DNA of 64,000 nucleotides from Candidatus Poribacteria bacterium (lineage in GTDB: Bacteria; Poribacteria; WGA-4E; JAJDTR01). The stretch spans positions 3,392,001 to 3,456,000 of the forward strand of contig CBDCTK010000002.1 in assembly GCA_965222225.1 (NCBI GenBank). Direction: 5' to 3'. Shown here piece after piece: positions 18,820 to 48,207 of the stretch. Below the pieces are notes generated by a model. The model was not told the origin of the DNA and searched no databases. It saw only the letters and a list, made by a program, of their open reading frames with translations. Every line of letters starts with the position of its first letter. Positions within the stretch are counted from its first letter, which is position 1. A program made the position numbers and the translations under genes.

Positions 18820-19069
18820 TATAGTCATTGCAACTAAGAATTACACATGTGTTTATTAACATACCCAAATCCCCACCCATTCCCGTAGGTCGGGATCAAC
18901 CGAACGAATAGTGAGGGATCAAGGGAATGAAAAATGACCGCGATAGAGTTCCCATAGAGATCCCTTCCAGCCCGACCCGCTCAATGGGAAACGTCGCAAA
19001 CCGGGAGATTGTGAGCTAAGTCGAGTCAATCGACGCTCATATGTGTAAATATAAATGCAAACGACTATA
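18820..19069. mobile_element. Putative MITE with about 29-bp imperfect TIRs, related to 40553-40759
   Basis: Left TATAGTCATTGCAACTAAGAATTACACAT; right ATGTGTAAATATAAATGCAAACGACTATA; left end nearly identical at 40553. Confidence 0.65.
18895..18964 (+). repeat. Nested GA-hairpin elements inside the REP GTAG-GTCGGG...CCCGAC
   Basis: Units at 18895 and 18918; REP arms at 18889-18894 and 18971-18976. Confidence 0.9.
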
Positions 19070-19094
19070 GCCCATCGTTTAGTTCGTAGTAGAA

Positions 19095-19149
19095 ATCAAG
19101 CGAGTGAATAACAATCAACCGACCGGATAGGGAGTGCGATAGAGATCTT
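19095..19149 (+). repeat. GA-hairpin elements (2 units)
   Basis: Units at 19095 and 19114 after GTTCGTAGTAGAA. Confidence 0.85.
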
Positions 19150-19247
19150 CTTGCCCTGCTTGGGAAGGCTTGATTGACGCTATTAACGCACTGCGAATAC
19201 AGAGAAATGGTATTAACAATCAAAGCAAATTCTACGAAGGCTCAGGT

Positions 19248-20636
19248 CTAATACAACTGTTCAACAAACCGACGCAACTGGAGTTCCAGCTCCCTGCCTA
19301 TTTCCGGGTGTTTATCCACAAGGTTGTTCAGTTCGTATAGATCTGTCTTTCGATTATAGAGTTCTGTTTTTGGCGGCGTTTCCAAACTGCCGACAAGCGT
19401 GCAGGAGATTGCGCCAAGCGTGCCCGGCATGCTCTGCTCAATCTTGGGAAGGGTTGGCAGCCACCAGATATAACTCCAATCGGGCGTGCGTATACTCCAC
19501 GATTTCAGGTAGAAGCCGGTGTAGGCATAATCCCGAATTGTTTCGATTTGGCCGGACATGATTGGAATTAGACTTTGGCCGTGCATGTGCTCTGGCCCGC
19601 CGATATCCAAGAAATCTAGAGTAGTCGGCATAATATCCGGCGGTTGCGCGAATGCTGACCGACGTTGACCGCTGCCGATTCCCTCAGGATGTCTAATCAT
19701 CAACGGAATATGCACAAGTTCCTCGTAGGGCCAAGGGCGTGCTTTTCGCATGATGCCATGCCCCCACTTGCCTTCGCCTAGCGGTTCGCCGTGGTCGGAC
19801 ATAAAGACAATCAATGTGTTATCGAACATCCCGAGTTCGCGTAACCGGTCTAGGAAGATACCCATCCATTTGTCCACCAATGAGATTTCGCCAGCGTATA
19901 GTGCTTGAACACATTTTAGGTCTTCCTCTGTGAGATACCCCTCCACCTCACCCGGGATTGGGTGAATGAGTTCTTTGCCGTTGTAGTCGGGCTGATACAT
20001 CCGATTGAAGGGCTCCGGCGGGTCCCAAGGTTCATGCGGATCAAAGCAGTCCATCCACAGAAATAGACCATCCTTCTTGGGTTGATGCTCAATCCAATGC
20101 AGAGATGATTTGACAACCTGCGCGATAAAGTGGTCTTCATCACTCTTCCAGTGCGATCGATTTCGCAGATATTGTTCGAGCTGGTCGCGAACGTTTGCAC
20201 TTGCTCCTATGTCGCCGCTTGATTTGTGATACGCGTCCACATCAACTTGAATCGTCCCGTCAAGAATATGTGGGTCACCCTCCTGCCCCCGGATGAAGTG
20301 GACGTAGTCGAAACCGCGCTCAAACGCCATCTGCGGCTTGTGCATGTGGTAGGTATCGGTAATCAAAGCCGAAGTGTAACCCGAACTCCAGAGTACCTCC
20401 GCTAAGAGAACATCGTCGTGCTCAAGACGTTGCCAGCCCCGAAAAGGAAAGGTATAACGTCCGGTGAACAGCGAGGTACGCGTTGGGATGGTTGGCAATC
20501 CTTCCGAAAAAGCCATATCGAAGACACAGCTTTCCGCTGCAAATCGATCGAGATTTGGCGTCTGAATCCACTCGTTGCCGTAGCAACCGAAATGGTCGAC
20601 ACGCCAACTGTCAGCCATGATGATGATAACGTTCAT
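19248..20636 (-). CDS. Sulfatase-like hydrolase (alkaline phosphatase superfamily)
   Basis: MNVIIIMADSWR, TPNLDRFA, PTIPTRTSLFTGRY, DPHEPW, MSDHGE; start set at ATG 20636. Confidence 0.85.
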   Translation of the reverse strand: MNVIIIMADSWRVDHFGCYGNEWIQTPNLDRFAAESCVFDMAFSEGLPTIPTRTSLFTGRYTFPFRGWQRLEHDDVLLAEVLWSSGYTSALITDTYHMHKPQMAFERGFDYVHFIRGQEGDPHILDGTIQVDVDAYHKSSGDIGASANVRDQLEQYLRNRSHWKSDEDHFIAQVVKSSLHWIEHQPKKDGLFLWMDCFDPHEPWDPPEPFNRMYQPDYNGKELIHPIPGEVEGYLTEEDLKCVQALYAGEISLVDKWMGIFLDRLRELGMFDNTLIVFMSDHGEPLGEGKWGHGIMRKARPWPYEELVHIPLMIRHPEGIGSGQRRSAFAQPPDIMPTTLDFLDIGGPEHMHGQSLIPIMSGQIETIRDYAYTGFYLKSWSIRTPDWSYIWWLPTLPKIEQSMPGTLGAISCTLVGSLETPPKTELYNRKTDLYELNNLVDKHPEIGRELELQLRRFVEQLY

Positions 20637-20778
20637 AGTTTTGAATTTAGATTTGGTAAGCGTTGAGTGATACCAATTCACATTCGATTCGGTATCGTTT
20701 GGGGGGGAATCGGTGACAGCCATCCCATGGATAGGAAAACACACCGATAGGCTTAGGTTGAATTGGAATTACAAGTTT

Positions 20779-21729
20779 CTAGTTGGGTGGTGGGTCGCTG
20801 AGGAGGTATCTCTTCCCGCCATTCAGAAGGGAGGCCTTCGCATAGGTGAGAATCTTGGCAACTTCGAGCTGTTCATCGTAAGACACCGGCATGTTGCCTG
20901 TGCGAAACATTTCGATTGCCGCTCTCACTGTGCGGATATGGAAATGCTCCTCCGCGAAGTCGGGATCGTCGGGCAGAATAGAGAATCGAGCTACACCGCC
21001 GCTGCCGAAAAGGCTGAAGTGGAATCCGTAAGCCATTTGCAGGGAGCGGAAGCACACCGTTCTCTCGCCTTCGTAGCCAACGACAACAACGTGTCGCGTC
21101 TCTCCGCCCAAATGCTCTACCCATTGGGCGCCGGCCCCAACCAATGACGTCAACGGATCGATTACGTGCACGCCGTAGAAGAAAAGCCAAGCCAATGGTC
21201 CTGCGCCATCAGCGGCAATAATGTCACCCAAGTCGGCTATGCGAGCCTTCTGGTCTAATACAGCCTGCGTAAACCGAATCCCGGAGCAGCAGAGCACGGG
21301 TGTGTTCTTATTCCGCGCTAGGGAGACAATGTCTTCAGACTGCTGCGCCGAGTGGCTGAGCGGCTTGTCTAGAAAGACCGGAGTGCCAGCCGCAATATAG
21401 GGCTCCGCCCAAGAGGCATTCCGATCCGCCCACTCTTCACACCCATCGTCACTTGAGATAACAGCATCCACCTGTCCCACAGCCTCGTCCGGCCGATCAA
21501 GAACACCCGGGATCTTAAGCGCTTGGGCAATAACCCGTGTTCGATCGGGGTCAGGCGTCCAAAGCGCAACTACTTTGGCATCCTCGCATAGCTGCCCAGC
21601 GGCAGGTGCAATAAACTTTATACCTGCGGCCTCTGCACGCTCCGGGGTACATCCGTTAATAATCTGGCTAAAATTGACTCCGTGGCTCCAGTCGTACTTG
21701 GCGGCGGTCAACGCTGCAATTCTAATCAT
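20779..21729 (-). CDS. Gfo/Idh/MocA-like oxidoreductase
   Basis: AGTPVFLDKPL, CSGIRF, FYGVH. Confidence 0.75.
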   Translation of the reverse strand: MIRIAALTAAKYDWSHGVNFSQIINGCTPERAEAAGIKFIAPAAGQLCEDAKVVALWTPDPDRTRVIAQALKIPGVLDRPDEAVGQVDAVISSDDGCEEWADRNASWAEPYIAAGTPVFLDKPLSHSAQQSEDIVSLARNKNTPVLCCSGIRFTQAVLDQKARIADLGDIIAADGAGPLAWLFFYGVHVIDPLTSLVGAGAQWVEHLGGETRHVVVVGYEGERTVCFRSLQMAYGFHFSLFGSGGVARFSILPDDPDFAEEHFHIRTVRAAIEMFRTGNMPVSYDEQLEVAKILTYAKASLLNGGKRYLLSDPPPN

Positions 21730-21943
21730 CGGTAAAGACTCCTTCTAGGCTTGAAACGTATGACGAGAGCACAGTTGCTAGGAAGTTGACGGCTGAAAAT
21801 AATAACGGCAAACAGAGATTTCCCCATACGTGTGACAGGAGTTGCCGAGTAGCGTTCAATACACCAAAGACAGAACGAAAAATTCCGCCTTCAACTGCAA
21901 TACGTCGTCGGGAATCTTCTCTTGGATTGTCGGCCCCGTCGGG

Positions 21944-22174
21944 TTATGCAAAAACTGCGACCGCCACCGGGCGTTTAATCCGCTCAATTTCGTGAAGTGT
22001 TTGTGCGGTCAGATAGCTTTCACCACAATGGGAGCAACTCTGCATCGGTATCCTTTCAATGACAAGAGGTGATTCGCCTTTCCCATAACTCCGTGAAATG
22101 TACCGCCGGCACACACCAGCATGCCCACAAACATCACACATCATGGTTTGATTCTTTGTTGCTTTATTCGACAT
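21944..22174 (-). CDS. YgiT-type zinc finger protein (MqsA-like antitoxin domain)
   Basis: CDVC...VIERIPMQSCSHCGESY. Confidence 0.75.
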   Translation of the reverse strand: MSNKATKNQTMMCDVCGHAGVCRRYISRSYGKGESPLVIERIPMQSCSHCGESYLTAQTLHEIERIKRPVAVAVFA

Positions 22175-22249
22175 AGACGCTGCGGTAACGATGCCGACTT
22201 TCCCATCAACTCGTTGATGGCATTACGGATAATGAAATTGACGCTTGAC

Positions 22250-23008
22250 TCACTTGCTTTGCTTGATTGTCCCCCAGGTCGTCGTGAGTTTGTCCAATGG
22301 CGAAACCGCAAAAATCACCTGCTTGAGTCCCTCGTTGACGATACGGCTCACCTCCACCGCTCTCAGTACACGGTCAAAAAGTGCCACTTCGTCAATGATG
22401 CCCCTGTACCTTCCGTTGTGCCCTGCAGCGATGGTTGTATGTGCTTCCTCACCCTTACTCCCCGGGATTTTCTTGTTTAGCCTCTTTTCCGCTGCGATTC
22501 GCCCATCAAGATACAGTTTCGCAATTGTTCCATCGTACGTCGCGGCGACATGATGCCATTCCTTTAGCGGAACCACATCAACTGAATCAATGACCGGATT
22601 GCCCGGCCCCAAGCCAAAACGAACCGCGCCCTCCTTGCCGGCATCGGCAGAGAGTACTGCGAAACGAAAGCTGTCGGCGCGCTGAAAAAAGGTGCCTTCA
22701 ATACCGGCCTGCGCCTTGTATTTTTCTACATATATCCACGCCACAATGGTGAGCTCGCTCGTTGGATTCAAACTCTCGTCGGTCCCGAGATTGAGCTGAT
22801 CGTCTTCACCGTCAAATCGCAGTGCATTGCCCGATTTGCCCGGCACCCATTTCTCGCCGCCGTGGTATGATCCATCGTTACCGTTGCCCGAGGCGTCCTT
22901 GGTTACAACATTGCCTCTTCCTTCATCACAGTACCATATCCCTCGAGCGTTTTCGGGGTTGAATGCGGAAGTGGCTTGTCCCGTGGACAGTAGTTCTGGC
23001 ACAATCAA
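22250..23008 (-). CDS. LamG-like jellyroll protein with Poribacteria-type C-terminal motif
   Basis: DASGNGNDG, GNALRFDG, WHHVAATYDG, GIIDEVALF, terminal AVSPLDKLTTTWGTIK; no clear signal peptide, so the start is uncertain. Confidence 0.85.
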   Translation of the reverse strand: MIVPELLSTGQATSAFNPENARGIWYCDEGRGNVVTKDASGNGNDGSYHGGEKWVPGKSGNALRFDGEDDQLNLGTDESLNPTSELTIVAWIYVEKYKAQAGIEGTFFQRADSFRFAVLSADAGKEGAVRFGLGPGNPVIDSVDVVPLKEWHHVAATYDGTIAKLYLDGRIAAEKRLNKKIPGSKGEEAHTTIAAGHNGRYRGIIDEVALFDRVLRAVEVSRIVNEGLKQVIFAVSPLDKLTTTWGTIKQSK

Positions 23009-23047
23009 ACTCGCAAATATTAATGATGCCCGCTAATCGATCGGGAT

Positions 23048-23881
23048 TTAGGATTCAAATTTCTGCAGTGAACACAGATAATCTGCACTTATCTGCGCCG
23101 CTTCGGCTGGCGCCATGATCTCGGCGAGCGCCTGGTGGACGGTCACATATCCGTCGTAGCCAACCGTTTGCAAAGCGTCGAAGACTTCACGCCAGTTCAC
23201 TCCGCGTGGATCGTGGAGCGGAATGTGGTCGAAATGGATTACCCCGCGAACCCATGTTTCGATGTTCGCTCTGCCTTCGGGATTCGGCAGATAATTCTGG
23301 AGGTAAACATTAAACAGATATGGCTTGAAGGCATTGAGCGCCTCCACACCGTATGCTTGACCACACATGCGCAGATTCGCAGGCTCATAAATGATACCGA
23401 AATTCGCGCGATCAATGCGGCGCAACACATCCACCGAACCTTCAATCGTCTCGAACAAACTTGCAACGTGGCATTGATGAGCCAGACGTATGCCTCGCTC
23501 CGCAGCTTCATCAGATGCGCGCTGCGCCCAAGGGATGTCTTCCTCTTTCTTCATGCAGATCCGCATCAGGTCACAGGGGAACGCTTCGGCAAGGTCAAGG
23601 TAGGGTGTGATGTTTCGCAGAGCGTCGGGCCCTTGCTCGAAATTCTCCGGGATGGCGAAGTCACCGGTGACCATTGAGACGTTTAGATTCAAGTGGTCGA
23701 GAATTTGGCGCACCTCTGCGACACGTTCCTTTGGCGACTGAATGCCGGCAACAGATGCTCGCATACAGATTGCATGATAGCCGTTGTCCCTCGCTAGTTG
23801 TGCCAGGTCTTCAAACGGTACGATAGACTCCTCTTTCTTGAAGAACGCTTCCGCAATCCGTGCGGAGAGTGAAAGTTTCAT
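23048..23881 (-). CDS. Sugar phosphate isomerase/epimerase (xylose isomerase-like TIM barrel)
   Basis: GIRLAHQCH, NFGIIYEPAN, VGYDGYVTVH. Confidence 0.75.
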   Translation of the reverse strand: MKLSLSARIAEAFFKKEESIVPFEDLAQLARDNGYHAICMRASVAGIQSPKERVAEVRQILDHLNLNVSMVTGDFAIPENFEQGPDALRNITPYLDLAEAFPCDLMRICMKKEEDIPWAQRASDEAAERGIRLAHQCHVASLFETIEGSVDVLRRIDRANFGIIYEPANLRMCGQAYGVEALNAFKPYLFNVYLQNYLPNPEGRANIETWVRGVIHFDHIPLHDPRGVNWREVFDALQTVGYDGYVTVHQALAEIMAPAEAAQISADYLCSLQKFES

Positions 23882-23904
23882 GTGCGATGCTCCTATCGGT
23901 CTTG

Positions 23905-24867
23905 TTACAGCCCAAAAGCGGTGTGGAAAGTGCCTTCCGTGCGCTGAAGCCTCATTAGCTCAATCGATCGGCACACTCCCGCTTTCACGTCAAATCGAGG
24001 CTTGAATCCCAGCTCATTTTCCACCGCTTCTGCTTGACAGTTCCAATCAATATTGGTTCGTCCAGGAAGTAAGTTAATTTGGGCTGAAGGGATAAGATCT
24101 TTGACGCAGTCCGCCGTGTACCGCATCGATTGGTAATCGCCGGGACAGTTGACAGATCTGCCTTCAAATTTGCCGGATTCGCTGGCGAGAACGGTTAACT
24201 CCGCAGCGTCCTCCACATACTGCCACGTATAAATTTCATCGCCGCACGGTGATTCAAACGGACAACCGCGTAGCGATGAGTCGATGAGGTGACTTCAGAA
24301 CACGCCGTTTCCTCGGAGTCTGCCCGCTCCATAGACAAACATGTAGCGCAAACCCACCGAATCCACCCGGAACTGTTTGTAGTAGTGACGAGCGAGGAAT
24401 TCTGCGTATGACTTCGACGCGCCGTAGACATTTTGAGGAAGGTGATCCGATGAATCTGTAACAGGCCCTTCATAACACCCAACGGGGCCAAACACCGCCA
24501 CGGAACTTGCCCAAACCACCCGCTCAATCTCGCACAGACGCGCCGCTTCAAGGACATTCACCATTGCCAGACAAATATCCTTCACAGCTACTGAAGGAAA
24601 CGGTTCAGTCACGGGATCGAGCGGAGAAGCTATGTGAATTATCTTCTCAATTCGGTTGTCTTTTACGGCACCGAGGAGACGATGAAAATCGCTTATTGAG
24701 CCGGAGATGATCTGTGCCTCTGACAACGTCCGAGAGTCAAGCAGCAGAGAAAGGGTATTGCCATGCAGGTGGGAATCGTAGACAAAAGGTTCATGTCCAC
24801 GCTTGAGCAATTCGTGGACGGTATAAGCGCCGATAAAACCACCGCCGCCCGTGACAAGGTAGCGCAT
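23905..24867 (-). pseudogene. NAD-dependent epimerase/dehydratase interrupted by an in-frame TGA
   Basis: VTGGGGFIG, ASSVAVFG, YGASK. After the TGA at 24295-24297 the same frame continues SHLIDSS...YTWQYVEDAAEL to 23905. Confidence 0.8.
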
Positions 24868-25209
24868 TGTTGTATCTACCCTTGTTAGTTGTGGGGAAGG
24901 GTCCTAGCAAACCAAAATCTAGATATTGCGCAGGTGGAGGACGTATCGCAACACGGTGTCTTGCTTCTCGATCAGTTCACCACAGACTGCGGTGCAAAAG
25001 GCTTCTTTATGCAAACCGTGCTGTTTCGCGCCTTATCGCCACCCCAGATCTCACCCCTAACGAGTAGCCTTGGAACATACGCAACATAATTATAACTCTA
25101 GCACGATCAACGTTTTCTGTCAATGAAAATTAGCTCTCGATTCATCGTAGAGGACGGCCGCTGTGCCTTCCCATGCCGGTGATTTCACAATTCTCCCATC
25201 ACGTTTCCT

Positions 25210-25273
25210 GTCCTTCCATCCTTCCCCTCTTCCATCCTTCCCTCTTCGTAGTAGGACAATTCATTGCACGCCC
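25210..25273 (+). repeat. Pyrimidine-rich (T)CTTCC tandem repeat followed by a GTAG REP
   Basis: Similar tracts near 1201-1230, 37993-38025 and 54426-54455, and on the minus strand near 11129-11163. Confidence 0.6.
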
Positions 25274-25383
25274 TGACGTTCTTTTCTCACTTCTAATAGC
25301 GAATTCATCAGGCAATCAGGTATCATAGTTTCTGCAACCGGAACGGAAACTATGCCAATGCGCTCATCCGCTATAGCGAAAAC

Positions 25384-26696: not shown

Positions 26697-26788
26697 GTAG
26701 GAGCGATCTCCTGGTCGCGACCGCCTATTCTTGGCAGGCCAAGATGCCCTGCCTACCGTCGTGACCTCCAGTTGCTGCGTAAGTTCTA
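26697..26788 (+). repeat. GTAG REP doublet (uninterrupted copy)
   Basis: Inverse homolog of 4101-4190; ends in TGCGTAAGTTCTA. Confidence 0.75.
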
Positions 26789-26815
26789 ATATCTTTATCT
26801 AATCTGTGGGTTGGG

Positions 26816-26887
26816 ATCAAGCGAGTGGACAACGATCAAGCGAACGGATAGTGAGCGCGATAGCAAATCCCGTGCGATAGAAATCCC
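26816..26887 (+). repeat. Nested GA-hairpin elements inside the REP GTGGGTTGGG...GAACCCAAC
   Basis: Units at 26816 and 26835; uninterrupted REP homolog at 56612-56647. Confidence 0.9.
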
Positions 26888-31527: not shown

Positions 31528-31746
31528 TCAAGCGACAACGGATGCTTCTACGTGCGACTCACGGTGTTTGTCACCCCGGAAAACTGGTGCACCTGTATGA
31601 CACTCAATGTCGCTTGTGCAAGCGCCCCACGCGTCTGCTATCCGAAATGCCGACCTAACATTGACGGGGGCTTGCACATCCTGTACGATAAAAGCCAGTT
31701 TTCTTTCTGGCGCTTCCGCCTGCTTAGAGCTTGTTTGAACATCCAT
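31528..31746 (-). pseudogene. Fragment resembling the N-terminus of a SpoU/TrmH RNA methyltransferase
   Basis: IVQDVQAPVNVRSAFRIADAWG resembles SPOUT motif 1; the ORF is only 72 aa. Confidence 0.45.
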
Positions 31747-31794
31747 TTTTGTAGCGCTATTCGTCTCAAAACCAAGGTTTTTGTCAGCGTTTTT

Positions 31795-31874
31795 GTAGGG
31801 TGTGCACTGCGCACCAGCCTTTAGAAGCCCCAGCGGGGATCGAGCGAACGGATAGTGAGTGCGATAGAGATCTC
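31795..31874 (+). repeat. GTAG REP (GTAGGGTGTGCACTGCGCACC) plus a single GA-hairpin element at 31839
   Basis: REP homologs at 56462 and, truncated, at 4640. Confidence 0.85.
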
Positions 31875-31982
31875 ACAGATAATTGCACTCGAAATGCCCA
31901 AAAATGGCTTTTCCATCTATTTTTCAAACAGGATCTTCAGAAAATCTTTGAGCGGTTACCGCGAGGTTGTTTCATCTGAACG

Positions 31983-33748: not shown

Positions 33749-33780
33749 AATGAGCGCGAAAGAACTCCCATAGAGATCCC
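33749..33780 (+). repeat. 3' fragments of the GA-hairpin element
   Basis: AATGAGCGCGAAAGAACTCCC-ATAGAGATCCC. Confidence 0.6.
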
Positions 33781-37729: not shown

Positions 37730-37834
37730 ATCAACCAATCAAACGAGATCAACCGAACGGACAGTGAGGGCGATAGACATCCTGATAGCGACTGCGATAG
37801 TAAATCCCGTGCGATAGTATTCCTATAGAAATCT
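37730..37834 (+). repeat. Multiply nested GA-hairpin element cluster
   Basis: Two 5' stubs (37730, 37738), a full unit at 37748, then three 3' fragments. Confidence 0.85.
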
Positions 37835-38038
37835 TCTCCAACCTGTAGGAGGGAGCTCCGGCTCGCGACAAACCCAAGTTTATTCTCGAAATCTCGGTTT
37901 TACCTCCATCGCCTTCTTCGCCTTGCAGCACCGTATTTCGCCGCGCCGCCCGCGCTCTCACGATTCACGCACTACGTTTCATGTGCGTCCCGTCCTTCCA
38001 ATCTTCCCTCCTTCCATCCTTCCCCGTTCGTAGTAGTG

Positions 38039-38074
38039 ATCAAGGAAGCGAATAGCGACCGCGATAGAAATCCT
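38039..38074 (+). repeat. Single GA-hairpin element truncating the REP GTAGTAGTG
   Basis: ATCAAGGAAGCGAATAGCGACCGCGATAGAAATCCT. Confidence 0.85.
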
Positions 38075-40540: not shown

Positions 40541-40552
40541 CGAATCGGAGTT

Positions 40553-40759
40553 TATAGTCATTGCAACTAAGAATTATACATTTAGGATTTATGCAGTGCG
40601 GTTTGTAGGAGCGATCAAAGGAATGAATAATGACTGCGATAGAGATCCCTCTCCGAATCGCGACCATGGGTTTATAGCAGCGCAGTTCATTGCGCGTCGC
40701 TTGGTGCTTCACTTACCTATAGATCGCAATATGTGTAAATGTGAAGGTAGATGATTATA
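40553..40759. mobile_element. Putative MITE carrying REPs and a GA-hairpin element
   Basis: Left TATAGTCATTGCAACTAAGAATTATACAT; right ATGTGTAAATGTGAAGGTAGATGATTATA. Confidence 0.6.
40614..40649 (+). repeat. Single GA-hairpin element inside the REP GTAGGAGCG|TCTCCGAATCGCGACC
   Basis: Removing 40614-40649 restores a REP like those at 26697 and 4190. Confidence 0.9.
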
Positions 40760-40842
40760 AGAATGCTGGACATATCCACGACGACGTCGGAAATCGGAAG
40801 TAGCATTTTCCTCCAATCCACAGAAATCCTAACAAAGACTAT

Positions 40843-42018
40843 ATGAACACTGTACGCGTTGGCATCGTCGGGTTGGGGCTTGTTGCTGCCTCACACTTGA
40901 AAGGCTACGGGTGCCATCCACATGCCCAAGTCGTTGCCATCTGCGATCTTGAGGCGGCAAGAGCAGATCGTTTTGCGTCGGAACACGGAATTGAGGATGT
41001 CTATACGTCGTATGAGGAGATGTTGGCAAAAGCCCAAATCAACACGGTTGATATCGCCACCCCGACCTTTCTACACCCATCAATGACCCGCCAAGCCGCC
41101 GAAGCCGGAATGCATGTCCACTGCGAGAAACCCTTCTGCCGGAGTGTGGGCGAAGGCCTTGAAGCCTGCGAGGCTGTACACCGTAGCGGGGTCAAGCTAG
41201 TTGTCGGTGAGACGTATGTCTTTATCGCCTCCCACATGAAGGCTCGTGAACTAATTGATGCCGGAGAGATTGGACGCCCCCTCCAACTACGCCAACGGCA
41301 CGGTGCTTGGTTCGAGCGTGAAAGAGAAGTGGTTGGAGAAATCCCCGAAGCCCGAAACTGGCGCGTCAATGGCGAAAAATCGGGCGGTGGTGACTATCCG
41401 TGGATCTTCGACCATGCCGTGCATTTCTTCGCCACAGCCGAATACCTCATGGGAGATACCCGGATTGCCGAAATCTCTGCCGTCACCGGTACCTGTCGAA
41501 CGGATTCGAACGGAGGCGGTGCTGCCCACGATCCTTATTCGATCCCCGATGTCGATATTCCCATCATCACGTGGAAGTATGAGGATACTGATTGCCAGGG
41601 GCTTTGGATGCGAGCTGAACGGCTGAACGGCAAATACGACTACATGCACGGCTTCAGCACGACGGTCATCGGTGAGCGCGGTATGATTGAGGTGCTGGGG
41701 GAGGGCGGTCACAATCTGTTGTGGAACGGCGAGCAGCAGCATCTGCTTTTGCATCGCGAAGGCAAAGAAACCCGCTCCTTCCGCTTTGACGAGGGAGGCG
41801 ATGATGTTTGGCAATCTGATATCAGCTACTACAGCCGCGGACATATTAACCAAGTCCACCATCTTATCGACTGTGTCCACCATGATACTTCACCCCGTTA
41901 TTCCGGGGAGGATGGTGTACATGCCGTACGCTGCACCTTAGCCGCAATACGCTCCGCTCGCGAAAGCCGCCCCATCGCCGTAGAGGACATCGCTCCAAGC
42001 TACACCGCCTACTCCTAG
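40843..42018 (+). CDS. Gfo/Idh/MocA oxidoreductase
   Basis: VGIVGLG, HVHCEKP, FDHAVH. Confidence 0.9.
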   Translation: MNTVRVGIVGLGLVAASHLKGYGCHPHAQVVAICDLEAARADRFASEHGIEDVYTSYEEMLAKAQINTVDIATPTFLHPSMTRQAAEAGMHVHCEKPFCRSVGEGLEACEAVHRSGVKLVVGETYVFIASHMKARELIDAGEIGRPLQLRQRHGAWFEREREVVGEIPEARNWRVNGEKSGGGDYPWIFDHAVHFFATAEYLMGDTRIAEISAVTGTCRTDSNGGGAAHDPYSIPDVDIPIITWKYEDTDCQGLWMRAERLNGKYDYMHGFSTTVIGERGMIEVLGEGGHNLLWNGEQQHLLLHREGKETRSFRFDEGGDDVWQSDISYYSRGHINQVHHLIDCVHHDTSPRYSGEDGVHAVRCTLAAIRSARESRPIAVEDIAPSYTAYS

Positions 42019-42088
42019 GTCTATTTGCCTTGAAGATTAGAACTTACCCATTCGGTAATGAGACGATGACCATTTTAGAGGTATCGGT

Positions 42089-43372
42089 ATGAACATCACC
42101 CAATTCTCAATCGAAGAGGTACGCTGTTTGGCCGAACGCCAAAATTTTGAGATTCGCCCCTTGACGTTCTTGGTCGGCGAAAACAGCACCGGCAAAACAA
42201 CAGCATTGGGGTGTTTCCAAGCATTGGCAAACTGTTTTACTGAGGGGGTAGTGGATTTTAATCGTTCCCCGTATTCAATGGGGAATTTTGAGGATGTTGT
42301 TAGAAATAGCAGGAAAAAAGGAAAGACTTTCAAACTTGGGTTTAATTTTGAACACGGAAAGGAAAACGTCGAATGGATCCTTGAATTCGTTGAGCAGAAG
42401 GGGAAACTTGAACCTGCTGTCGATGCGGCGTCACTGAGATTCAGTGATGGTAAAATCGTTTGCATTCCGGATTTTGGACTGGAGCTGGATACACATGTAG
42501 CCGACTTTGATGGAGAAAAAAATCAGTATCATATTGTTCATGGCTATGATTTGGTGAGTGAATTTCCGCCTTCTGCTTTTCTTCGCTATATTATGTCTGG
42601 AGCCGAATCTGAAGACGAGAAGGCTTTACAAAAGTATTTGAAGACAAAGCCTACGGCTCTATGGCGCGATAAACCTATACTCGTGTTTAGTATCGCGCCT
42701 ATTCGATCGCACCCAAAACAGTCCTATAATGCGACAGAGGTATCTGATGACCCTGAGGGGAGCGATGTACCGATGCAGTTGATGGAGAGAAAAACGACTA
42801 AAGAAAAGGAATGGGAGGCCTTGAAGCAGCAGTTGGTCAAATTTGGGAAGAGTTCGGGACTGTTTCAGAACATAGAGATTGTAAATCTAAGGTCACCCGA
42901 GGCTTCATTCCAACTAAGAATCAAGGTGAGGGGGCCCAACGCCAGTATCATTGATGTCGGCTACGGCATTAGTCAAATTCTGCCGATTCTGGTGCAGATT
43001 CTTGACCCGCCGAGTTCTCGTGGACCCGTAACAGAGATGCCCTTCTTCCTACTACAACAGCCTGAAATCCATTTGCATCCCAAAGCACAAGCCGAACTTT
43101 CTACTCTAATAGCGAAATTGGCGGGCGAGCATAAGAGGGCATTCATCGTTGAAACACATAGCGACTACATGATTGACCGCGCACGGATCGAAATCAGGAA
43201 AGGCACTATTCGTCCCGAGGATGTATCATTGATATATTTGGAGCCAAAGGGACGAGTTGTCAAGGTACACAATATCAGTTTTGACAAGACTGGAGATATG
43301 ATTTCCATACCGAATTCGTATCGAGAATTCTTCATGAAGGAAGTTACCCACCTCATGGGTTTTGAGGGCTAA
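42089..43372 (+). CDS. ABC/AAA ATPase (AAA_15/DUF3696-like), putative defence protein
   Basis: Walker A GENSTGKT, DVGYGISQILP, LLQQPEIHLHP, VETHS. Confidence 0.8.
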   Translation: MNITQFSIEEVRCLAERQNFEIRPLTFLVGENSTGKTTALGCFQALANCFTEGVVDFNRSPYSMGNFEDVVRNSRKKGKTFKLGFNFEHGKENVEWILEFVEQKGKLEPAVDAASLRFSDGKIVCIPDFGLELDTHVADFDGEKNQYHIVHGYDLVSEFPPSAFLRYIMSGAESEDEKALQKYLKTKPTALWRDKPILVFSIAPIRSHPKQSYNATEVSDDPEGSDVPMQLMERKTTKEKEWEALKQQLVKFGKSSGLFQNIEIVNLRSPEASFQLRIKVRGPNASIIDVGYGISQILPILVQILDPPSSRGPVTEMPFFLLQQPEIHLHPKAQAELSTLIAKLAGEHKRAFIVETHSDYMIDRARIEIRKGTIRPEDVSLIYLEPKGRVVKVHNISFDKTGDMISIPNSYREFFMKEVTHLMGFEG

Positions 43373-43374
43373 CT

Positions 43375-43799
43375 ATGTGTATTATTTTGGATGCCAATAT
43401 GTTGAGCAGATTCAAGAAACGCGCCGATGAGGACATAAAGCCTGTGTGGGACTGGGTATATAACAGAAATGGAAAGATAGCTTACTCTACCACTGAGAAG
43501 TTTAAAGAAGAATGGACAAAGGGAGGAGGAGACAATGTGCTGAAAGAACTGCAAACGAATAAAAAACTCAAACCAGTGTCGGCTCAAGATGTATTAGAGA
43601 ACAAAACGAACTGGAGGGACAAATAAAATCAAATGACCCGCATATTATCGCGTTAGCCATCGTTGCAAACGTAAAGGTATTAGTTTCCGAAGACGGAACA
43701 TTGATAAACGACTTTACCAATCGCAATCTGGTGGTTCGAGGCAGAGTCTATCGGAGGGCGGAACATGCGCATTTACTGACTAGCGTTCGTTGTCCTTAA
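43375..43799 (+). pseudogene. PIN-like domain protein with an apparent frameshift near 43600
   Basis: MCIILDANM in the first frame; IKSNDPHIIALA..VLVSED continues in another frame to TAA 43797-43799. Confidence 0.65.
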
Positions 43800-43852
43800 C
43801 TGGCTGAGGCGTTCCCTCATTCTCAATCACTGGACGTATAACACAAGTAATC

Positions 43853-46540
43853 ATGGCACTACACCCAAACTTCCCTCAGTCCCCGCACGCAATTAGCGAC
43901 CCCTCGGTGCGCTGGTTCCCAGCCGACGAAGAACTGCGGGACACCGGCTACGGAAAACTCATTCCCCCACTCGTCCACAAAATCCGCGAAAAGGTCAAAA
44001 CGTGGCGAGAGGCCGGCTACGGAGAAGCTGCCGAAACCAGCAAATCCCTTCTCAACTGGTGGTTTAACACTCCCCATCTCATGGAAGGCGCCGATGGCGA
44101 AACCAGCGGATTCCAATACTACTTCGCCCAGAGAGAGGCGTTGGAGACCGTAATCTACCTGTACGATGTCATTAGGGTACAGGACAAATACGACTTAATG
44201 CGATTTGACAGTTCAGGCGCAATCTCAACCGGCATGTTTGATGAAGATTGGCGCCGGTTCGTGCTGAAGATGGCAACCGGCACCGGCAAAACAAAGGTGA
44301 TGGGCCTTGTCGTCGCTTGGAGTTTCTTTCACAAACTCTACGAACCCGACTCCGACCTGTCGCGCAACTTTCTGGTCATCGCTCCCAACATCATTGTGCT
44401 TGACCGTATCTATCACGATTTTCAAGGGCTACGCGTTTTCTTTGGCGACCCCGTGTTGCCCGACAACGGTTTTGACGGTCACAACTGGCGTGACGATTTC
44501 CAACTGACCCTGCATCGACAGGACGAAGTGCGCGTCTCCCGTGCCACCGGCAACATCTTTCTTACCAATATCCATCGGGTCTATTCTAGCGACCAAGCCC
44601 CGCCGTCCCCCGATGACGAAAACACGATGGACTACTTTCTCGGCAAACGACCCACGGGGGCAACCACGGATTCAAAGGTAGACGTAGGGGATATTGTCCG
44701 GGAGGTGGACGAACTCATGGTACTGAACGATGAAGCGCATCATATCCATGACCCGAGATTAGCATGGTTCAAATCCATTGAGGACATTCATAACCGCCTA
44801 CTGCAGAAAGGCGGCAAGCTATCGTTGCAAGTAGATGTCACCGCCACGCCCAAACACAACAACGGAGCGATCTTTGTCCAGACGGTGGCGGATTATCCGC
44901 TCGTGGAAGCCATCTCCCAAAATGTTGTCAAACACCCCGTGCTGCCCGATGCGCCGAGTCGAGCCAAGTTGGAGGAGCGGCAAAGCGCGAAGTACACCGA
45001 GAAATATGCGGACTACCTCGAACTTGGCGTCATCGAGTGGCGCAAAGCCTATGCGGAACATGAAAAACTGGGTAAGAAAGCCATTCTATTTGTAATGACC
45101 GACGATACCCGAAACTGCGATGAGGTCGCCGAATATCTCGAAAGCCGTTATCCCGAACTGAAAGATGCCGTCTTGGTGATTCACACACAGAGGAATGGCG
45201 AAATTTCTGAGGCAACTTCGGGCAAGAAGAAAGAGGAGTTGGGCGAACTGCGTAAACAGGCGAATGAAATTGATTCGATGGGGAGCCCCTACAAGGCGAT
45301 CGTATCGGTGCTGATGCTCAAGGAGGGATGGGATGTCAGGAATGTGACCACCATTGTCGGCTTACGCGCCTACTCCGCCAAGAGCAACATCCTGCCGGAA
45401 CAGACCTTGGGACGCGGGCTGCGCCGCATGTACGGCGAGGAAGTGAAGGAGTCAGTCAGCGTCATCGGCACCAACGCTTTCATGGAATTTGTCGAGTCTA
45501 TCCAAGCGGAAGGAGTTGAATTGGAACGCCAAGCCATGGGCGAGGGCACTGGCCCCAAAACACCGCTGGTGATTGAAGTGGACAAAGACAACCCCAGCAA
45601 AGACATTGACGCTCTAGATATCAGTATTCCTAAACTAACCGGGCGTGTTTATCGGGAATACAAGAATCTGTCCGAACTTGATGTGACGCGCTTCGATTTT
45701 ACCCCTGTGACCTATCGGGAGTTTAGCGAAGAAGAGCAACGGGAGATTGTTTTTAAGGACATGACGACGGGTGAGACGACGCATACCACACAGATGGATA
45801 GTGCCGGCATCGCGGATTATCGGAGTGTGATTGCCTACTTCGCACAGACTATCATGAAAGAGTTACGACTGGTCGGTGGCTACGACGCCCTATACCCCAA
45901 GGTACAAAGTTTCATTGAGAGCCACTTGTTCGGCAGATCGGTGGCGTTGGAAGACCCAAATACCTTACGCAATCTGTCAGAGGTTGCGGCAACAAAAACC
46001 GTATTCGATACCTTCAAGCGAGCGATTAACGACCTCGCAGTTCGGGACAAGGGTGACACAAAGATTAGCGATACTATCAAGCTGCGAAGTACGCGCCCCT
46101 TCGTGGTCAAAGACCAGCGGTACGTAGTGTCGAAAAAGTCCGTGTTCAACAGAATCACGGGCGATAATCAACTAGAACGCGACTTCGCCACTTTCTTGGA
46201 AAACTGCCCCGATGTCCTTTCCTACGCCAAGAACTACTTCGCGGTAAATTTCAAGCTTGATTATGTCAACGCCGATGGTGATATTTCCAACTACTACCCG
46301 GATTTCATAGTTAAACTCGCAGATGGCAGTGTAATCATCGCCGAGACAAAAGGTAGAGAAGATACCGATGTGGCACCAAAAATGCGCAGACTCGCCCAGT
46401 GGTGCGAAGATGTCAACAAAATTCACCACGAAGTTTCTTATGACTTTGTCTACGTTGACGAGGACAGCTTTCGGACGTACAACCCACACACATTTCAACA
46501 ACTGCTGGAGGGATTCACCGAATACAAAACCCGCGACTGA
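43853..46540 (+). CDS. res: Type III restriction enzyme Res subunit
   Basis: KMATGTGKT, NDEAHH, TATP, LKEGWDV, EQTLGRGLR, C-terminal YYPDF..ETKG nuclease motif. Confidence 0.9.
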   Translation: MALHPNFPQSPHAISDPSVRWFPADEELRDTGYGKLIPPLVHKIREKVKTWREAGYGEAAETSKSLLNWWFNTPHLMEGADGETSGFQYYFAQREALETVIYLYDVIRVQDKYDLMRFDSSGAISTGMFDEDWRRFVLKMATGTGKTKVMGLVVAWSFFHKLYEPDSDLSRNFLVIAPNIIVLDRIYHDFQGLRVFFGDPVLPDNGFDGHNWRDDFQLTLHRQDEVRVSRATGNIFLTNIHRVYSSDQAPPSPDDENTMDYFLGKRPTGATTDSKVDVGDIVREVDELMVLNDEAHHIHDPRLAWFKSIEDIHNRLLQKGGKLSLQVDVTATPKHNNGAIFVQTVADYPLVEAISQNVVKHPVLPDAPSRAKLEERQSAKYTEKYADYLELGVIEWRKAYAEHEKLGKKAILFVMTDDTRNCDEVAEYLESRYPELKDAVLVIHTQRNGEISEATSGKKKEELGELRKQANEIDSMGSPYKAIVSVLMLKEGWDVRNVTTIVGLRAYSAKSNILPEQTLGRGLRRMYGEEVKESVSVIGTNAFMEFVESIQAEGVELERQAMGEGTGPKTPLVIEVDKDNPSKDIDALDISIPKLTGRVYREYKNLSELDVTRFDFTPVTYREFSEEEQREIVFKDMTTGETTHTTQMDSAGIADYRSVIAYFAQTIMKELRLVGGYDALYPKVQSFIESHLFGRSVALEDPNTLRNLSEVAATKTVFDTFKRAINDLAVRDKGDTKISDTIKLRSTRPFVVKDQRYVVSKKSVFNRITGDNQLERDFATFLENCPDVLSYAKNYFAVNFKLDYVNADGDISNYYPDFIVKLADGSVIIAETKGREDTDVAPKMRRLAQWCEDVNKIHHEVSYDFVYVDEDSFRTYNPHTFQQLLEGFTEYKTRD

Positions 46541-46550
46541 ATCCTGTTTA

Positions 46551-46834
46551 TAGGACTTACGCATTTCGGTTTGTAGTTGCCCGAATCTGTAACTGTTTAG
46601 TTGAGTTCATAGAAGTGAGAAAAGGGGCCGCATGTTGTAGAGTACGCACCTCGCAGCAAACGTGTCGGCGTTAGGTCTGGTTCGTAGTAGTGCAATTCAT
46701 TGCACGTCCCAAGCAGGCATGTAATATCCCGATTCATCTAGTTCTGTCAACCGCTAGCGCAACAAGCATATTAATCCGTGCAATCCGCGTAATCCATTTA
46801 ATCCGCGATTCAGACAGTGTTTGCGTAAATCCTA
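46551..46834. mobile_element. Putative MITE with TAGGACTTACGCA TIRs, containing a REP (46684) and AATCCG short repeats
   Basis: TAGGACTTACGCA ... TGCGTAAATCCTA (12 of 13 match); related ends near 4252-4264, 7632, 26776-26788 and 40583. Confidence 0.6.
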
Positions 46835-46893
46835 GTTTGTATTAAAATGTGGCTTTCCCGACTGCTTGGCTGCGAGTGCTTGCGTTTCTTAGA

Positions 46894-46922
46894 TTGACAG
46901 CGTAACACATGTATAGTATAAT
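46894..46922 (+). promoter_or_regulatory. Consensus sigma70 promoter
   Basis: TTGACA-17 nt-TATAAT, a perfect match. Confidence 0.8.
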
Positions 46923-46998
46923 TTGACAGGAACATGAGTTTATTGCCAAAATCATAATTATACGCTTTCTCCGTAAGTCCCGGATAATAGAGGAACCG

Positions 46999-47283
46999 AT
47001 GAATCATACAAATATGCCACAGACTGATTCAATTCAAGAACTCGCTCATTTCTGGGACACACATGACTTAACGGATGTCGAGGACGAACTTGAAGAAGTG
47101 AGTGCCCCGGTTTTTGAACGTAAAACTATGGTCATTGTTCGCTTAGAAGTTGCCCTTCGTTTAGAACCCGAAGAATCTGAGGTTGTCCAAGCGCTTGCCA
47201 ATTCGCGTGGAATCTCTCCTGCGAATCTGATTCGGGAATGGGTAATCGAACGCATTGAGGCATCGTCAGAACCGACAACTTAA
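46999..47283 (+). CDS. CopG/BrnA-like antitoxin
   Basis: SIQELAHFWDTHDLTD and an RHH-like C-terminus (LANSRGISPANLIREWV). Confidence 0.7.
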   Translation: MNHTNMPQTDSIQELAHFWDTHDLTDVEDELEEVSAPVFERKTMVIVRLEVALRLEPEESEVVQALANSRGISPANLIREWVIERIEASSEPTT

Positions 47284-47417
47284 CGTTTGTGACAATCAGA
47301 TGTTAATCCGCTGTTGCTAGATGGCACGAATCTGCGTTATATTATTTTGAACCTACCGGTGTGTGATACCGCGACAACTATGCCGGTACAATTGAATTTT
47401 AGTTTAAGAAGGATACT

Positions 47418-47885
47418 ATGAATATAGAATCGTATTTAACCGATAGAGTTGACGACCAGATAAAATACTTCGACCTGAACGCCATTCGGAACCAGAGAAT
47501 ATACAGGTTTTTGAGGATGACCGCAATCTCGTGCAATGTTCTCACCGCCTTGGCAATCGCGTTGACATTCGCTGCGCCAGCGTTATACAAGGTATATGTC
47601 GGGCTTGCGGCATTGGGGCTCACGCTGATTGTCCTTGCCACATACCAGATCGAAGAGTTCTACAATTTCGGCGCCAAGTGGCAAAAGTTCCGTATAGTTG
47701 GCGAACTGGTAAAGTCTGAAAAGTACATATTTTTGAATGGCGCGGGGGTGTATTCCTCCGGTGATATGGAGCAGCGGAAACGGTTATTCGTCAAGAAGGT
47801 TGAGGACATCTTTCGCGGTACAGATATGTCATACTTTTCATTGATGGTAGAGCCGGGCAAGGGACTGGAAAGGCGCTCGTCATAG
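47418..47885 (+). CDS. DUF4231 / SLATT-like two-TM protein
   Basis: YLTDRVDDQIKYF, two TM helices, WQKFRIVGELVKSEKYIF. Confidence 0.75.
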   Translation: MNIESYLTDRVDDQIKYFDLNAIRNQRIYRFLRMTAISCNVLTALAIALTFAAPALYKVYVGLAALGLTLIVLATYQIEEFYNFGAKWQKFRIVGELVKSEKYIFLNGAGVYSSGDMEQRKRLFVKKVEDIFRGTDMSYFSLMVEPGKGLERRSS

Positions 47886-47933
47886 TGTCAAGCAGCATAA
47901 GATGCTAAGAAGATTCTGTATGCTTTGAAACCG

Positions 47934-48004
47934 ATCAAGCGACCGAATAGGATCAAACGAGTGAATAACGAGTGCGATAGTGATTCCCGCGCGATAGAAA
48001 CCCC
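47934..48004 (+). repeat. Nested GA-hairpin elements inside the palindrome GAAACCG...CGGTTTC
   Basis: Units at 47934 and 47952; palindrome arms at 47927 and 48022-48028. Confidence 0.9.
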
Positions 48005-48207
48005 TTTTTTTCCTGAAAACTCGGTTTCTGCAAGCCGTCATTCCCGTGGGATGCGATCGGCAATCGTCAAATTCCTATCCCATTTATCTTCTTCTCAGTC
48101 CAAATTGAGAAAAAACGAATTCGAAAAGCACCATGTCTTAACTGATTACTGCCTTTACGATGCTGCCCACGCGTCGCAATACAATCTAAAATAAACAAAA
48201 TATCACC

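Follow-up and report, generated by a model that had tools for sequence, protein, structure and literature searches.

Here, we describe a 37-nucleotide (nt) repeat, hereafter the element, that lies between the genes of a stretch of DNA from Candidatus Poribacteria bacterium. The stretch, which we call the window, comprises 64,000 nt (G000:C2:3392001-3456000 in the 5.70-Mb assembly GCA_965222225.1); G000 denotes the window's genome, G019 the closest species compared, and other G numbers further Poribacteria genomes. The element has been inserted many times, independently and recently, at the apices of hairpins, with a small loss of target bases. It is very likely a mobile insert aimed at hairpin tips. 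Moreover, with less assurance, we take it to be a non-autonomous mobile DNA unit of one Poribacteria lineage that is probably moved via single strands by an enzyme acting in trans.

Anatomy of the element

The consensus of the element is GATCAA-xyGAzw-GRAYA-w'z'GAy'x'-GCGATAGARATCCC. Its build is modular, with one to three "A" units (GATCAA + xyGAzw + GRAYA + w'z'GAy'x', 18 to 23 nt) followed by one to three "B" units (GCGATAGARATCCC), and its ends are fixed, GATCAA... at the 5' end and ...GCGATAGARATCCC at the 3' end. In the window, the B motif has 19 matches with at most 2 mismatches, all on the + strand, versus 0.94 expected, and 0 of 100 shuffles reach that number; the A start has 16 matches, also all +, and a grouping of the window's repeats returned 14 copies of a 47-nt family. 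Genome-wide, there are 1,695 clusters of units, of which 740 contain both A and B (395 on the + strand and 345 on the - strand, with 3 on a 63-kb second contig). Analyses of flanks used 709 of these loci, and analyses of orientation and genes used 737. The order of units, A before B, is nearly absolute (AB, 414; AAB, 78; AABB, 67; ABB, 41; BA, 5), and 376 of the 414 AB loci are exactly 37 nt long, with non-stem positions conserved up to 99%.

Covariation defines a hairpin within the A unit. Positions 6-7 pair with 22-21 and positions 10-11 with 18-17, and in the 376 copies, which display 128 stem combinations, these four variable pairs are 92 to 96% paired, versus 54 to 79% in column shuffles. 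An alignment of 77 copies from several species gave 96.0% of cells paired, versus 65.4 +/- 1.8% after shuffling and 21 to 60% in slid controls; all 4 of the 4 pairs change on both sides, and doubly changed cells number 104, versus 16.8 expected. In the fold, two Watson-Crick pairs lie on either side of a tandem G·A/A·G step, in which an invariant GA is opposite GA, and the G...A of the loop is also fixed. A pyrimidine-GA-purine context favors tandem sheared G·A pairs, and the context here, which is mostly of that kind, would favor them in the element. Because G·T "pairs" are far more numerous than A·C (184 versus 26 in the 376 copies), only the top strand can form the hairpin; under RNA parameters, the bottom strand folds worse than shuffles. 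The invariance of non-stem positions, together with pairing kept through 128 stem variants, argues for the recognition of a defined structure.

The two ends have only GATC in common, and there are no terminal inverted repeats of 10 nt or more. A GGGATC/GATCCC terminal inverted repeat might act as a closing stem, but it consists of invariant bases only, and so no covariation is possible there.

Targets and junctions

The sites that host the element are hairpin apices, namely, those of repetitive extragenic palindromes (REPs) that start with GTAG, other palindromes, the element's own hairpin, and clustered regularly interspaced short palindromic repeats (CRISPRs). The word GTAG lies within 20 nt upstream of 295 of the 709 elements, versus 33 of 709 for the control word CTAC, with peaks at distances of 8 to 9 nt (175 elements), 4 to 6 nt (54 elements), and 16 nt (39 elements). 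Among random positions, 8.8% have a GTAG within 40 nt. The mirror arrangement, with CTAC downstream, occurs at background level, and within GTAG REPs, the element is always in the orientation of the GTAG strand.

Comparison of filled and empty sites in the same genome gave base-level resolution of the junctions. Joining the two flanks produced a match elsewhere in the genome that spans the junction for 142 of 709 elements, versus 10 of 709 displaced controls. Strict flanks, defined as an exact 11-nt left flank plus a right flank within 1 mismatch, identified an empty paralogue for 114 of 709. The strings replaced in these 114 pairs are GCA (23), GC (23), GCAT (17), GCG (10), GA (9), and others; 105 of the 114 are 2 to 4 nt long. 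The target sequence at the junction is only G-S-G-like, with no conserved tetranucleotide.

These pairs bear on an earlier account of the window, made from its letters alone (the sequence-only reading), in which a tiny mobile unit was proposed to target hairpins. All six of the junctions that it quoted are present in the sequence. It noted a G at the 5' junction, and the replaced string does start with G in 109 of 114 pairs; it is not, however, simply a G kept from the target, an idea ruled out by the elements that start with A or C, of which 12 of 12 sit where the empty sites have G. It also saw no clear target duplication, and none occurs in the 114 strict junction pairs, but what is found instead is the small target loss just described. 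Its view that targets share hairpin potential rather than long sequence was borne out, in that the 114 pairs fall into 51 target families that are unrelated in sequence. So was the palindrome enrichment over intergenic background that it had set beforehand as a check: the joined flanks reach a minimum free energy (MFE) of -4 kcal/mol or lower in 41.6% of cases, versus 19.2% for the background (Mann-Whitney p about 1e-45). In the folded empty forms, the replaced bases mostly lie at the top of the stem beside the loop, usually in the G-rich arm. We also considered whether the variable stem matches the target in the manner of a guide and ruled this out, as mutual information is at most 0.10 bit.

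Independent insertion and nesting

Direct evidence for repeated insertion comes from single sites that hold many forms of the element. In one REP family, the 23 copies that directly follow GGCGGG have at least 8 stem types among them, and so do the 17 copies at the site that follows AGGAGC. The presence of many stem types at the same site indicates separate, independent insertions.

The element also inserts into itself. Among the AABB loci, 47 of 67 resolve to a complete inner 37-mer within an outer unit that lacks 1 to 4 nt. The inner unit enters at outer position 12 (the first loop base), 17 to 19, or 23; the canonical unit has a G at all of these positions. Window loci 18894, 26815, and 47933 are of this nested kind.

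CRISPR repeats as targets

A CRISPR array at G000:C2:2705500-2707800 is built of a 37-nt repeat, GTAGCAACCATTGCCSCGAYGAAAAGSGGACTGAAAG, which starts with GTAG, and spacers of 35 to 39 nt. The single Cas1 gene of G000 lies at C2:2703012, 2 kb upstream of the array. In 4 of the 12 repeats, an insert that carries the element interrupts the sequence just after GAAAAG(C), and this locus has about 30 element units within 6 kb. The same junction in the CRISPR repeat occurs at the distal (trailer-side) end of arrays in G017, G115, and G019 (L183 2300-2900, L180 1560-1680, and L179 1500-1710). Thus, the element enters a hairpin whose function is entirely different at a comparable point, a G run beside the loop. 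That REPs, CRISPR repeats, and the element itself are all hit alike argues for recognition of structure rather than sequence.

Split CRISPR repeats in four species suggest a cost to host immunity. The CRISPR system does not, from its distribution, appear to be needed for the element: a repeat of the GTAGCAACCATTGCCSCGAYGAAAAGSGGACTGAAAG type is not present in 3 of 10 genomes of the genus, which still carry the element. In G010, 49 CRISPR repeats are regularly spaced with no sign of an insert.

Each insert in the G000 array is bounded by a + strand element on its left and a - strand element on its right, and CCCGAYGAAAAG, a segment of the loop, occurs on either side.

Comparison with related species

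One orthologous site differs by the element alone. Just past the stop codon of tnpA, a gene for an IS200-like transposase, lies a REP that contains the element in G000, G010, and G019 and lacks it in G031, G115, and G082, its flanks being the same. Read on the same strand, the sequence is ACCTGT-CG-CCCCTCTGGGG where the site is empty and ACCTGT-element-CCTCTCTGGGG where it is filled. Empty alleles in relatives, which had been named in advance as the comparison to make, therefore exist.

Elsewhere, turnover involves larger segments. Among nine genomes of the same genus, orthologous intergenic regions vary widely both in length and in the elements that they contain; one region, for instance, measures 579 nt with an element in G000, 368 nt without an element in G019, and 98 nt in six others. 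Along 400 kb of synteny with G019, whose genes are 82 to 97% identical to those of G000, the two genomes have 3 of about 60 element loci in common, whereas 35 fall within larger indels and 21 are partial; for only 1 of the roughly 60 loci, there is an indel of element size, with flanks that aligned poorly. The carriers of the element are mobile as well. Public sequencing runs were also searched, and 20 contain the window or part of it; in the four examined, contigs break at elements, with short joints whose sides are 20 to 39 nt, and they yielded no clean filled or empty allele. For the annotation of sponge-symbiont genomes, the element explains much of the extreme intergenic turnover between species.

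Distribution

Candidatus Poribacteria are sponge symbionts, and our comparative panel consisted of 121 genomes from the Poribacteria phylum. Under a strict pattern with at most 1 mismatch, 8 of 8 genomes of the window's genus contain 278 to 751 copies each, the maximum being that of G010. The sister genus has 3 copies, each of 4 genomes of genus g3 has 9 to 17, and g5 has 1 copy in 1 of 14 genomes; no copy turned up in the remaining genera, among them the 82 genomes of family f3. The 77 aligned copies were used to build a covariance model, which, in a search that scored 56 candidates per genome, places at least 53 copies in each g3 genome and found no element in the 82 genomes of f3. When the exact pattern was sought in one genome per prokaryotic species, at least 99 stretches matched, nearly all titled Candidatus Poribacteria; among the matches listed, one is titled "uncultured bacterium," and none is cyanobacterial. 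A search of viral contigs gave 0 matches, and a literature search that combined Poribacteria with REP or MITE (miniature inverted-repeat transposable element) terms found no paper on such repeats.

Orientation and strand

The orientation of the element follows the asymmetry of the chromosome. Across 87 bins of 50 kb, orientation correlates with local GC skew (Spearman -0.50), such that the top strand lies on the C-rich strand for 484 copies, versus 253 on the other. Empty REPs display the same skew bias in five families (105:50, 19:5, 85:61, 22:14, and 9:3), while a sixth is even (25:24). Neighboring genes have no such influence: 229 copies are co-oriented with them and 215 are anti-oriented, with 96 and 140 in mixed settings. 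Long open reading frames (ORFs) occupy 76% of the chromosome and contain 57 of 737 copies. An orientation that is tied to skew and not to genes argues against a role at the RNA level and for a process acting on DNA strands.

The GC skew of G000:C2 is itself patchy, with a change of sign every few hundred kilobases, and at one sharp switch near 1.95 Mb, element orientation goes from 19:0 to 3:22. This patchiness points to many inversions or assembly joins.

Element loci in the window

The window contains about 15 element loci, all on the + strand and all between long ORFs. Its genes run in the minus direction in the first 24 kb and in the plus direction thereafter, and every element is + regardless. 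No tRNA gene was found in the window. The loci are as follows.

4656..4788, + strand: nested cluster A A B A A B B, preceded by a GTAGGGTACGCACTGC REP half and followed by the 3' half of a GTAGGAGC-type REP
7778..7831, + strand: AAB form, with the B unit partly degenerate
18606..18670, + strand: ABBB form, hosted by a REP that reads GTAGGCGG...CCCCG; G019 has a simple AB at the orthologous position
18894..18964, + strand: AABB, a complete inner 37-mer in an outer unit minus GCG, at the apex of the REP GTAGGTCGGG...CCCGAC; empty paralogue GTAGGTCGGGCTTCCAGCCCGAC
19094..19149, + strand: AAB form
26815..26887, + strand: AABB nested form in the REP GTGGGTTGG...GGAACCCAAC
31838..31874, + strand: single 37-nt element in a CCCCAGCGGG hairpin, downstream of the intact REP at 31795
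33756..33780, + strand: B-unit remnant, two overlapping B units without an A unit
37747..37824, + strand: one A unit and several B units
38038..38074, + strand: single 37-nt element directly after GTAGTAGT, in place of the REP loop; the REP is intact at 7654 and 46684
40613..40649, + strand: single 37-nt element in the REP GTAGGAGC...TCTCCGAATCGCGACC
47933..48004, + strand: AABB nested form in a non-GTAG hairpin, GAAACC...GGTTTC
56505..56560, + strand: degenerate element units after the intact REP at 56462
58348..58420, + strand: AABB form
60365..60423, + strand: degenerate element, with one A unit and one B unit further on

The window also holds empty comparators.

7654..7679, + strand: intact GTAGTAGTGCAATTCATTGCACGTCC; second copy at 46684-46709
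26697..26722, + strand: intact REP GTAGGAGCGATCTCCTGGTCGCGACC
31795..31815, + strand: intact GTAGGGTGTGCACTGCGCACC hairpin; second copy at 56462-56482
56612..56642, + strand: intact CTAGGTTGGGTTGAACGTAGTGAAACCCAAC hairpin

Four junctions illustrate the pattern. Near 18885, the sequence reads GTAGGTCGG-AABB-TTCCAGCCCGAC; near 26806, it reads GTGGGTTGG-AABB-ATAGAACACAGTGGAACCCAAC, with an intact copy at 56612-56642; near 47927, it reads GAAACC-AABB-TTTTTTTCCTGAAAACTCGGTTTC; and at 40605, it reads GTAGGAGC-element-TCTCCGAATCGCGACC, with the intact GTAGGAGCGATCTCCTGGTCGCGACC at 26697. Both intact relatives claimed for the last of these, at 26697 and 4190, are real, although the one at 4190 lies on the minus strand. 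At 38030, the 3' flank has diverged too, and the locus at 4640 is chimeric, as its right flank comes from a different REP.

Several larger repeats surround these loci. At 18830-19069 and 40553-40759, a MITE-like palindrome (TATAGTCATTGCAACTAAGAATTAYACAT ... ATATGTGTAAAT..GCAAACGACTATA) has different REPs plus the element in its middle; a palindrome that encloses a REP that encloses an element amounts to three levels of nesting. An insert of about 240 nt at approximately 31705-31945, with imperfect terminal inverted repeats (AGAGCTTGTTTGAA / TTCAAACAGGATCTT), holds a REP and an element and is missing from the orthologous site of G019. A 65-nt repeat (CCGTACTGGGTAAGATTTGATTAACGC...GAAATGGTATAAACA, copies 72 to 78% alike) follows three elements, at 18677-18741, 19154-19218, and 58426-58490, and probably belongs, as its 3' portion, to a larger carrier that holds the GTAGGCGGG REP. 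Intergenic runs of an 8-nt CCTTCC-type repeat (CCTTCCATCCTTCCC...) occur at 1201-1231, 25196-25242, 37986-38024, and 54425-54455, twice directly upstream of GTAGTAG REPs. Finally, the ORF at 62249-64000 contains DYDNDGD.DLYV.N segments repeated every 150 to 400 nt, and we presume that it encodes an FG-GAP/VCBS-type repeat protein.

Search for an enzyme

The sequence-only reading suggested that the machinery of the REP-associated tyrosine transposase (RAYT) and its HUH relatives might be used, and it correctly found no such gene in the window: the genome has five Y1 (PF01797) matches, and none of them lies in the window. All 10 of 10 genomes of the genus have at least one Y1 gene. One of them encodes the IS200-like TnpA, a 157-amino-acid (aa) protein that matches the NCBIfam IS200/IS605 family transposase at 65.8 bits (cut-off 55); the genome's own tnpA copy lies at G000:C2:3080258-3080728. 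The other Y1 genes are RAYT-like, with one relative scoring 126.9 bits (cut-off 80).

The surroundings of these genes were then compared with the element. At 12 loci from 4 genera, tnpA is flanked by arrays of AAGCCCCAGCGGGGCGACAGGTGTATAG, direct upstream and inverted downstream; judged by these arrays, TnpA with the motif YIKNQEAHH appears to form a REPtron-like unit in Poribacteria. The motif corresponds to subclass 1.2, which is marked "no" for REP in that subclass's table entry (Quentin et al. 2018). At 8 loci, RAYT genes are flanked by GTAG REPs of their own. The proposed search for RAYT or TnpA(Y1) genes flanked by the element thus came out negative, the element occurring there only as an insert in their REPs. 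The RAYT/HUH suggestion as a whole fared no better, since the Y1 genes examined are flanked by their own REPs, do not co-occur with the element in the 121 genomes, and come with no parent element.

Other sources of an enzyme were considered too. No TnpB domain and no IS110-type transposase domain were found in G000, and the absence of the latter rules out an IS110-type route. A route by reverse transcriptase (RT) was considered unlikely, as there is a single weak RT-domain match of 27.5 bits. A long parent element or a gene between inverted copies was ruled out because none was found.

One RAYT-like gene stands apart. It encodes 247 aa, is present in 3 of 121 genomes, and is 99% identical between G000:C2:2563965-2564705 and G019:C1:3780663-3781403. 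Such identity, amid 82 to 97% for other genes, and so narrow a distribution suggest a recent transfer.

A model for insertion and its difficulties

We propose the following model. The unit would move as, or be copied into, single-stranded DNA at the replication fork, where REPs, CRISPR repeats, and copies of the element would fold into hairpins. An enzyme acting in trans would recognize the hairpin of the element, and the same enzyme would make two cuts, separated by a few bases, in the target strand at the tip of a hairpin. A single-strand process is plausible. As to the mover, HUH/Y1 enzymes are the sole type of single-strand DNA enzyme found; they, and above all the IS200-like TnpA present in 10 of 10 genomes of the genus, are the most plausible candidates, although we put them forward only tentatively, and no result links them to the element. 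An alternative form of the model is an undescribed mode of insertion, in which an enzyme or the replisome recognizes a purine-stacked (tandem G·A) hairpin, swaps 37 nt for 2 to 4 bases at any folded hairpin tip, and thereby erodes CRISPR arrays; this is possible but doubtful. If it is true, the element may act as a selfish disabler of host immunity by splitting CRISPR repeats.

A number of results weigh against parts of this model, beginning with the enzyme. The element lies near Y1 genes only as an insert in their cognate REPs. The IS200-like TnpA is present in 79 of 121 genomes, including 19 of 32, 11 of 14, and 35 of 45 in genera without the element, and in just 2 of 4 genomes of the element-bearing genus g3. 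RAYT genes occur in 66 of 121, and none was found in G031 or G082, which hold hundreds of copies of the element; a third Y1 gene is present in 3 of 121. No long parent bounded by A and B ends exists, as same-strand A...B pairs are not in excess beyond 250 nt, and no gene recurs between inverted pairs of elements in the 61 pairs examined. Also, a target loss of 2 to 4 nt, a single hairpin, and the lack of a conserved target tetranucleotide are unlike insertion by the IS200/IS605 family, judged from IS608.

Folding and strand present further difficulties. With DNA nearest-neighbor parameters, the element alone has an MFE of 0 (z +1.1); RNA parameters give the covarying hairpin in 4 of 5 copies, yet it is no better than in shuffles (z about 0). 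The top strand lies mostly on the C-rich strand, which by the usual reading is the leading-strand template, the opposite of IS608.

Finally, not every copy needs an insertion of its own. In each of two target families, most copies share a single stem type (16 of 24 and 18 of 24), which indicates that filled carriers were amplified as units and that part of the copy number is hitchhiking. The nesting test explains 0 of 78 AAB, 0 of 41 ABB, 0 of 11 AAABB, and only 3 of 14 AABBB loci, and one orthologous copy is AB in the closest species, G019, and ABBB in G000. Together, these forms point to a second process that adds or removes sub-units in place.

Alternative explanations

The alternative that survives best, although we consider it rather unlikely, is copy choice without a dedicated transposase. 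A strand that stalls at a hairpin during lagging-strand synthesis would switch to a copy of the element via a match of 1 or 2 bases, copy 37 nt, and return, skipping 2 to 4 bases. Such a process would account for the lack of target duplication with a small target loss in every strict junction pair, for the preference of the top strand for C-rich, lagging-strand sequence (484 versus 253), and for the gain of sub-units in place (AB versus ABBB), along with the AAB and ABB forms that clean nesting leaves unexplained. It would also require neither a co-occurring enzyme gene, of which there is none in the 121 genomes, nor a parent element. Copy choice is difficult to reconcile, however, with a 5' junction that is base-exact in hundreds of copies and with fixed ends. 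First bases other than G are not target derived (12 of 12), and so a one-base entry match is not needed. Moreover, the pairing kept by 128 stem variants and the invariant non-stem positions point to recognition of structure, the orientation relative to GTAG is nearly absolute despite the palindromic stems of REPs, and family f3 has the same REPs and CRISPR-like hairpins, with the element in 0 of 82 genomes. We continue to favor a unit moved by an enzyme that acts in trans.

It is very improbable that the unit is a mere passenger, that is, a non-mobile sequence that entered a few REP or MITE carriers once and spread by carrier amplification plus gene conversion. Carrier amplification does contribute, as evidenced by the one-stem-type dominance of two target families (16 of 24 and 18 of 24), the 35 of about 60 elements that lie in larger, whole-carrier indels relative to G019, and the many element flanks that are themselves repeats. 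But a passenger would not be expected in 51 unrelated target families, in at least 8 stem types at one site, nested in itself at defined positions (47 of 67 AABB), or in the CRISPR repeats of four species, and the element alone differs at one orthologous site.

A similarly slim chance attaches to a structured RNA or cis-regulatory motif (a terminator, small RNA, or protein-binding hairpin) that is kept by selection and is not mobile DNA. Covariation with G·U-type wobble on one strand only would suit such a motif, as would the recovery of the hairpin in 4 of 5 copies by RNA parameters; contigs from a metatranscriptome run also span elements, which does not demonstrate transcription. Against this, orientation shows no bias relative to genes (229 co-oriented versus 215 anti-oriented, with 96 and 140 mixed), the species do not keep copies at the same places, copies lie inside one another and inside CRISPR repeats, and the folding energy of the unit is no better than that of shuffles. 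Also, a search of both strands of the 64-kb window for Rfam families at the gathering score gave 0 matches.

Least probable of all is off-target integration by Cas1-Cas2 of a unit of spacer length into hairpins that resemble the GTAG-starting CRISPR repeat: although spacers of 35 to 39 nt, a repeat that is a 37-nt GTAG hairpin, a Cas1 gene 2 kb upstream of the array, the invasion of 4 of 12 repeats, and the Cas1-Cas2 off-target integration beside cruciforms that Nunez et al. reportedly observed in 2015 all fit, the element occurs in the 3 of 10 genus genomes without this CRISPR repeat, the 49 regular repeats of G010 are without sign of an insert in a genome of 751 copies, spacer integration duplicates its target where element targets lose bases, and hundreds of integrations of one fixed sequence would go unexplained.

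Relation to known systems

A mobile unit of 37 nt is one of the smallest mobile elements seen, and its likeness to each described system is partial. It is unlike a CRISPR repeat in that it occurs as dispersed singletons or nested copies, and the real array of G000 has a different repeat, which the element interrupts. It is unlike a MITE of a DDE transposon in that its ends have no inverted repeats of at least 10 nt and its insertion makes no target duplication of fixed length. Fungal mitochondrial GC clusters and double-hairpin elements are GC-rich perfect palindromes with a short target duplication; like the element, they are gene-less palindromic units of tens of bases that insert in one another.

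Members of the IS110/IS1111 family, such as IS621, are REP-targeting elements of more than 1 kb with a recombinase gene of their own. IS621-type elements share with ours an orientation-specific insertion into REP hairpins without target duplication. The differences are that G000 has no IS110-type domain and that a double-stranded circle of 37 bp is not feasible.

IS608 is the model of the IS200/IS605 family; it is strand specific, makes no target duplication, has its hairpin on one strand, and has an orientation linked to replication. The element resembles IS200/IS605 members and palindrome-associated transposable elements (PATEs) in the absence of target duplication, in strand specificity, and in an orientation tied to replication asymmetry. 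Unlike them, it has one hairpin and not two subterminal ones, loses target bases (2 to 4 nt in 105 of 114), and has no fixed target tetra- or pentanucleotide, no full-length relative, and no TnpB in G000. Its skew bias is of the opposite sign to that of IS608.

REPs and REPINs are short intergenic repeats with a one-strand hairpin and hundreds of copies and are thought to be handled as single strands (PMC3116915, PMC6006769), as we propose for the element. In G000, the element and the genome's own REPs have the same orientation bias relative to GC skew. Nevertheless, the element starts with GATCAA and has no GTAG or GTGG head; the GTAG belongs to the host REP, 8 to 9 nt upstream. It also flanks no Y1 gene as a cognate repeat and forms no inverted doublets. 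In relation to REPs, the element is a parasite inside their loops.

The closest described kind is the small dispersed repeats (SDRs) of Nostoc. Elhai et al. are said to have described SDR1-8, of which SDR5 is the most relevant here, in Nostoc punctiforme and relatives in 2008, and SDRs nest in other repeats. The element has the properties of an SDR: it is under about 40 nt, dispersed, lineage restricted, precisely inserted into repeats or palindromes, and nested. SDRs, like the element, are far below the size of MITEs, are non-coding, and occur in lineage-restricted bursts. SDR5 inserts between bases 3 and 4 of HIP1, a precise insertion into a short palindrome like that of the element, and a 2018 paper reports no SDR-like repeat outside Nostocaceae among HIP1-rich cyanobacteria (PMC5861425, PMC4390886). 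The SDRs, which we compared by description alone, differ in length (21 to 27 nt versus 37 nt), sequence, and phylum, and the element, unlike SDR5, targets the apices of hairpins of many sequences, with a loss of 2 to 4 nt.

Ever since the SDRs of Nostoc were described, the spread of repeats only a few dozen bases long has been a question, and the element family makes it testable, with a defined 37-nt unit, a hairpin proven by covariation, and a sharp target rule. Also, hundreds of copies in each of at least eight species genomes, set beside 0 of 82 genomes in one sister family, make a comparative search for the enzyme possible.

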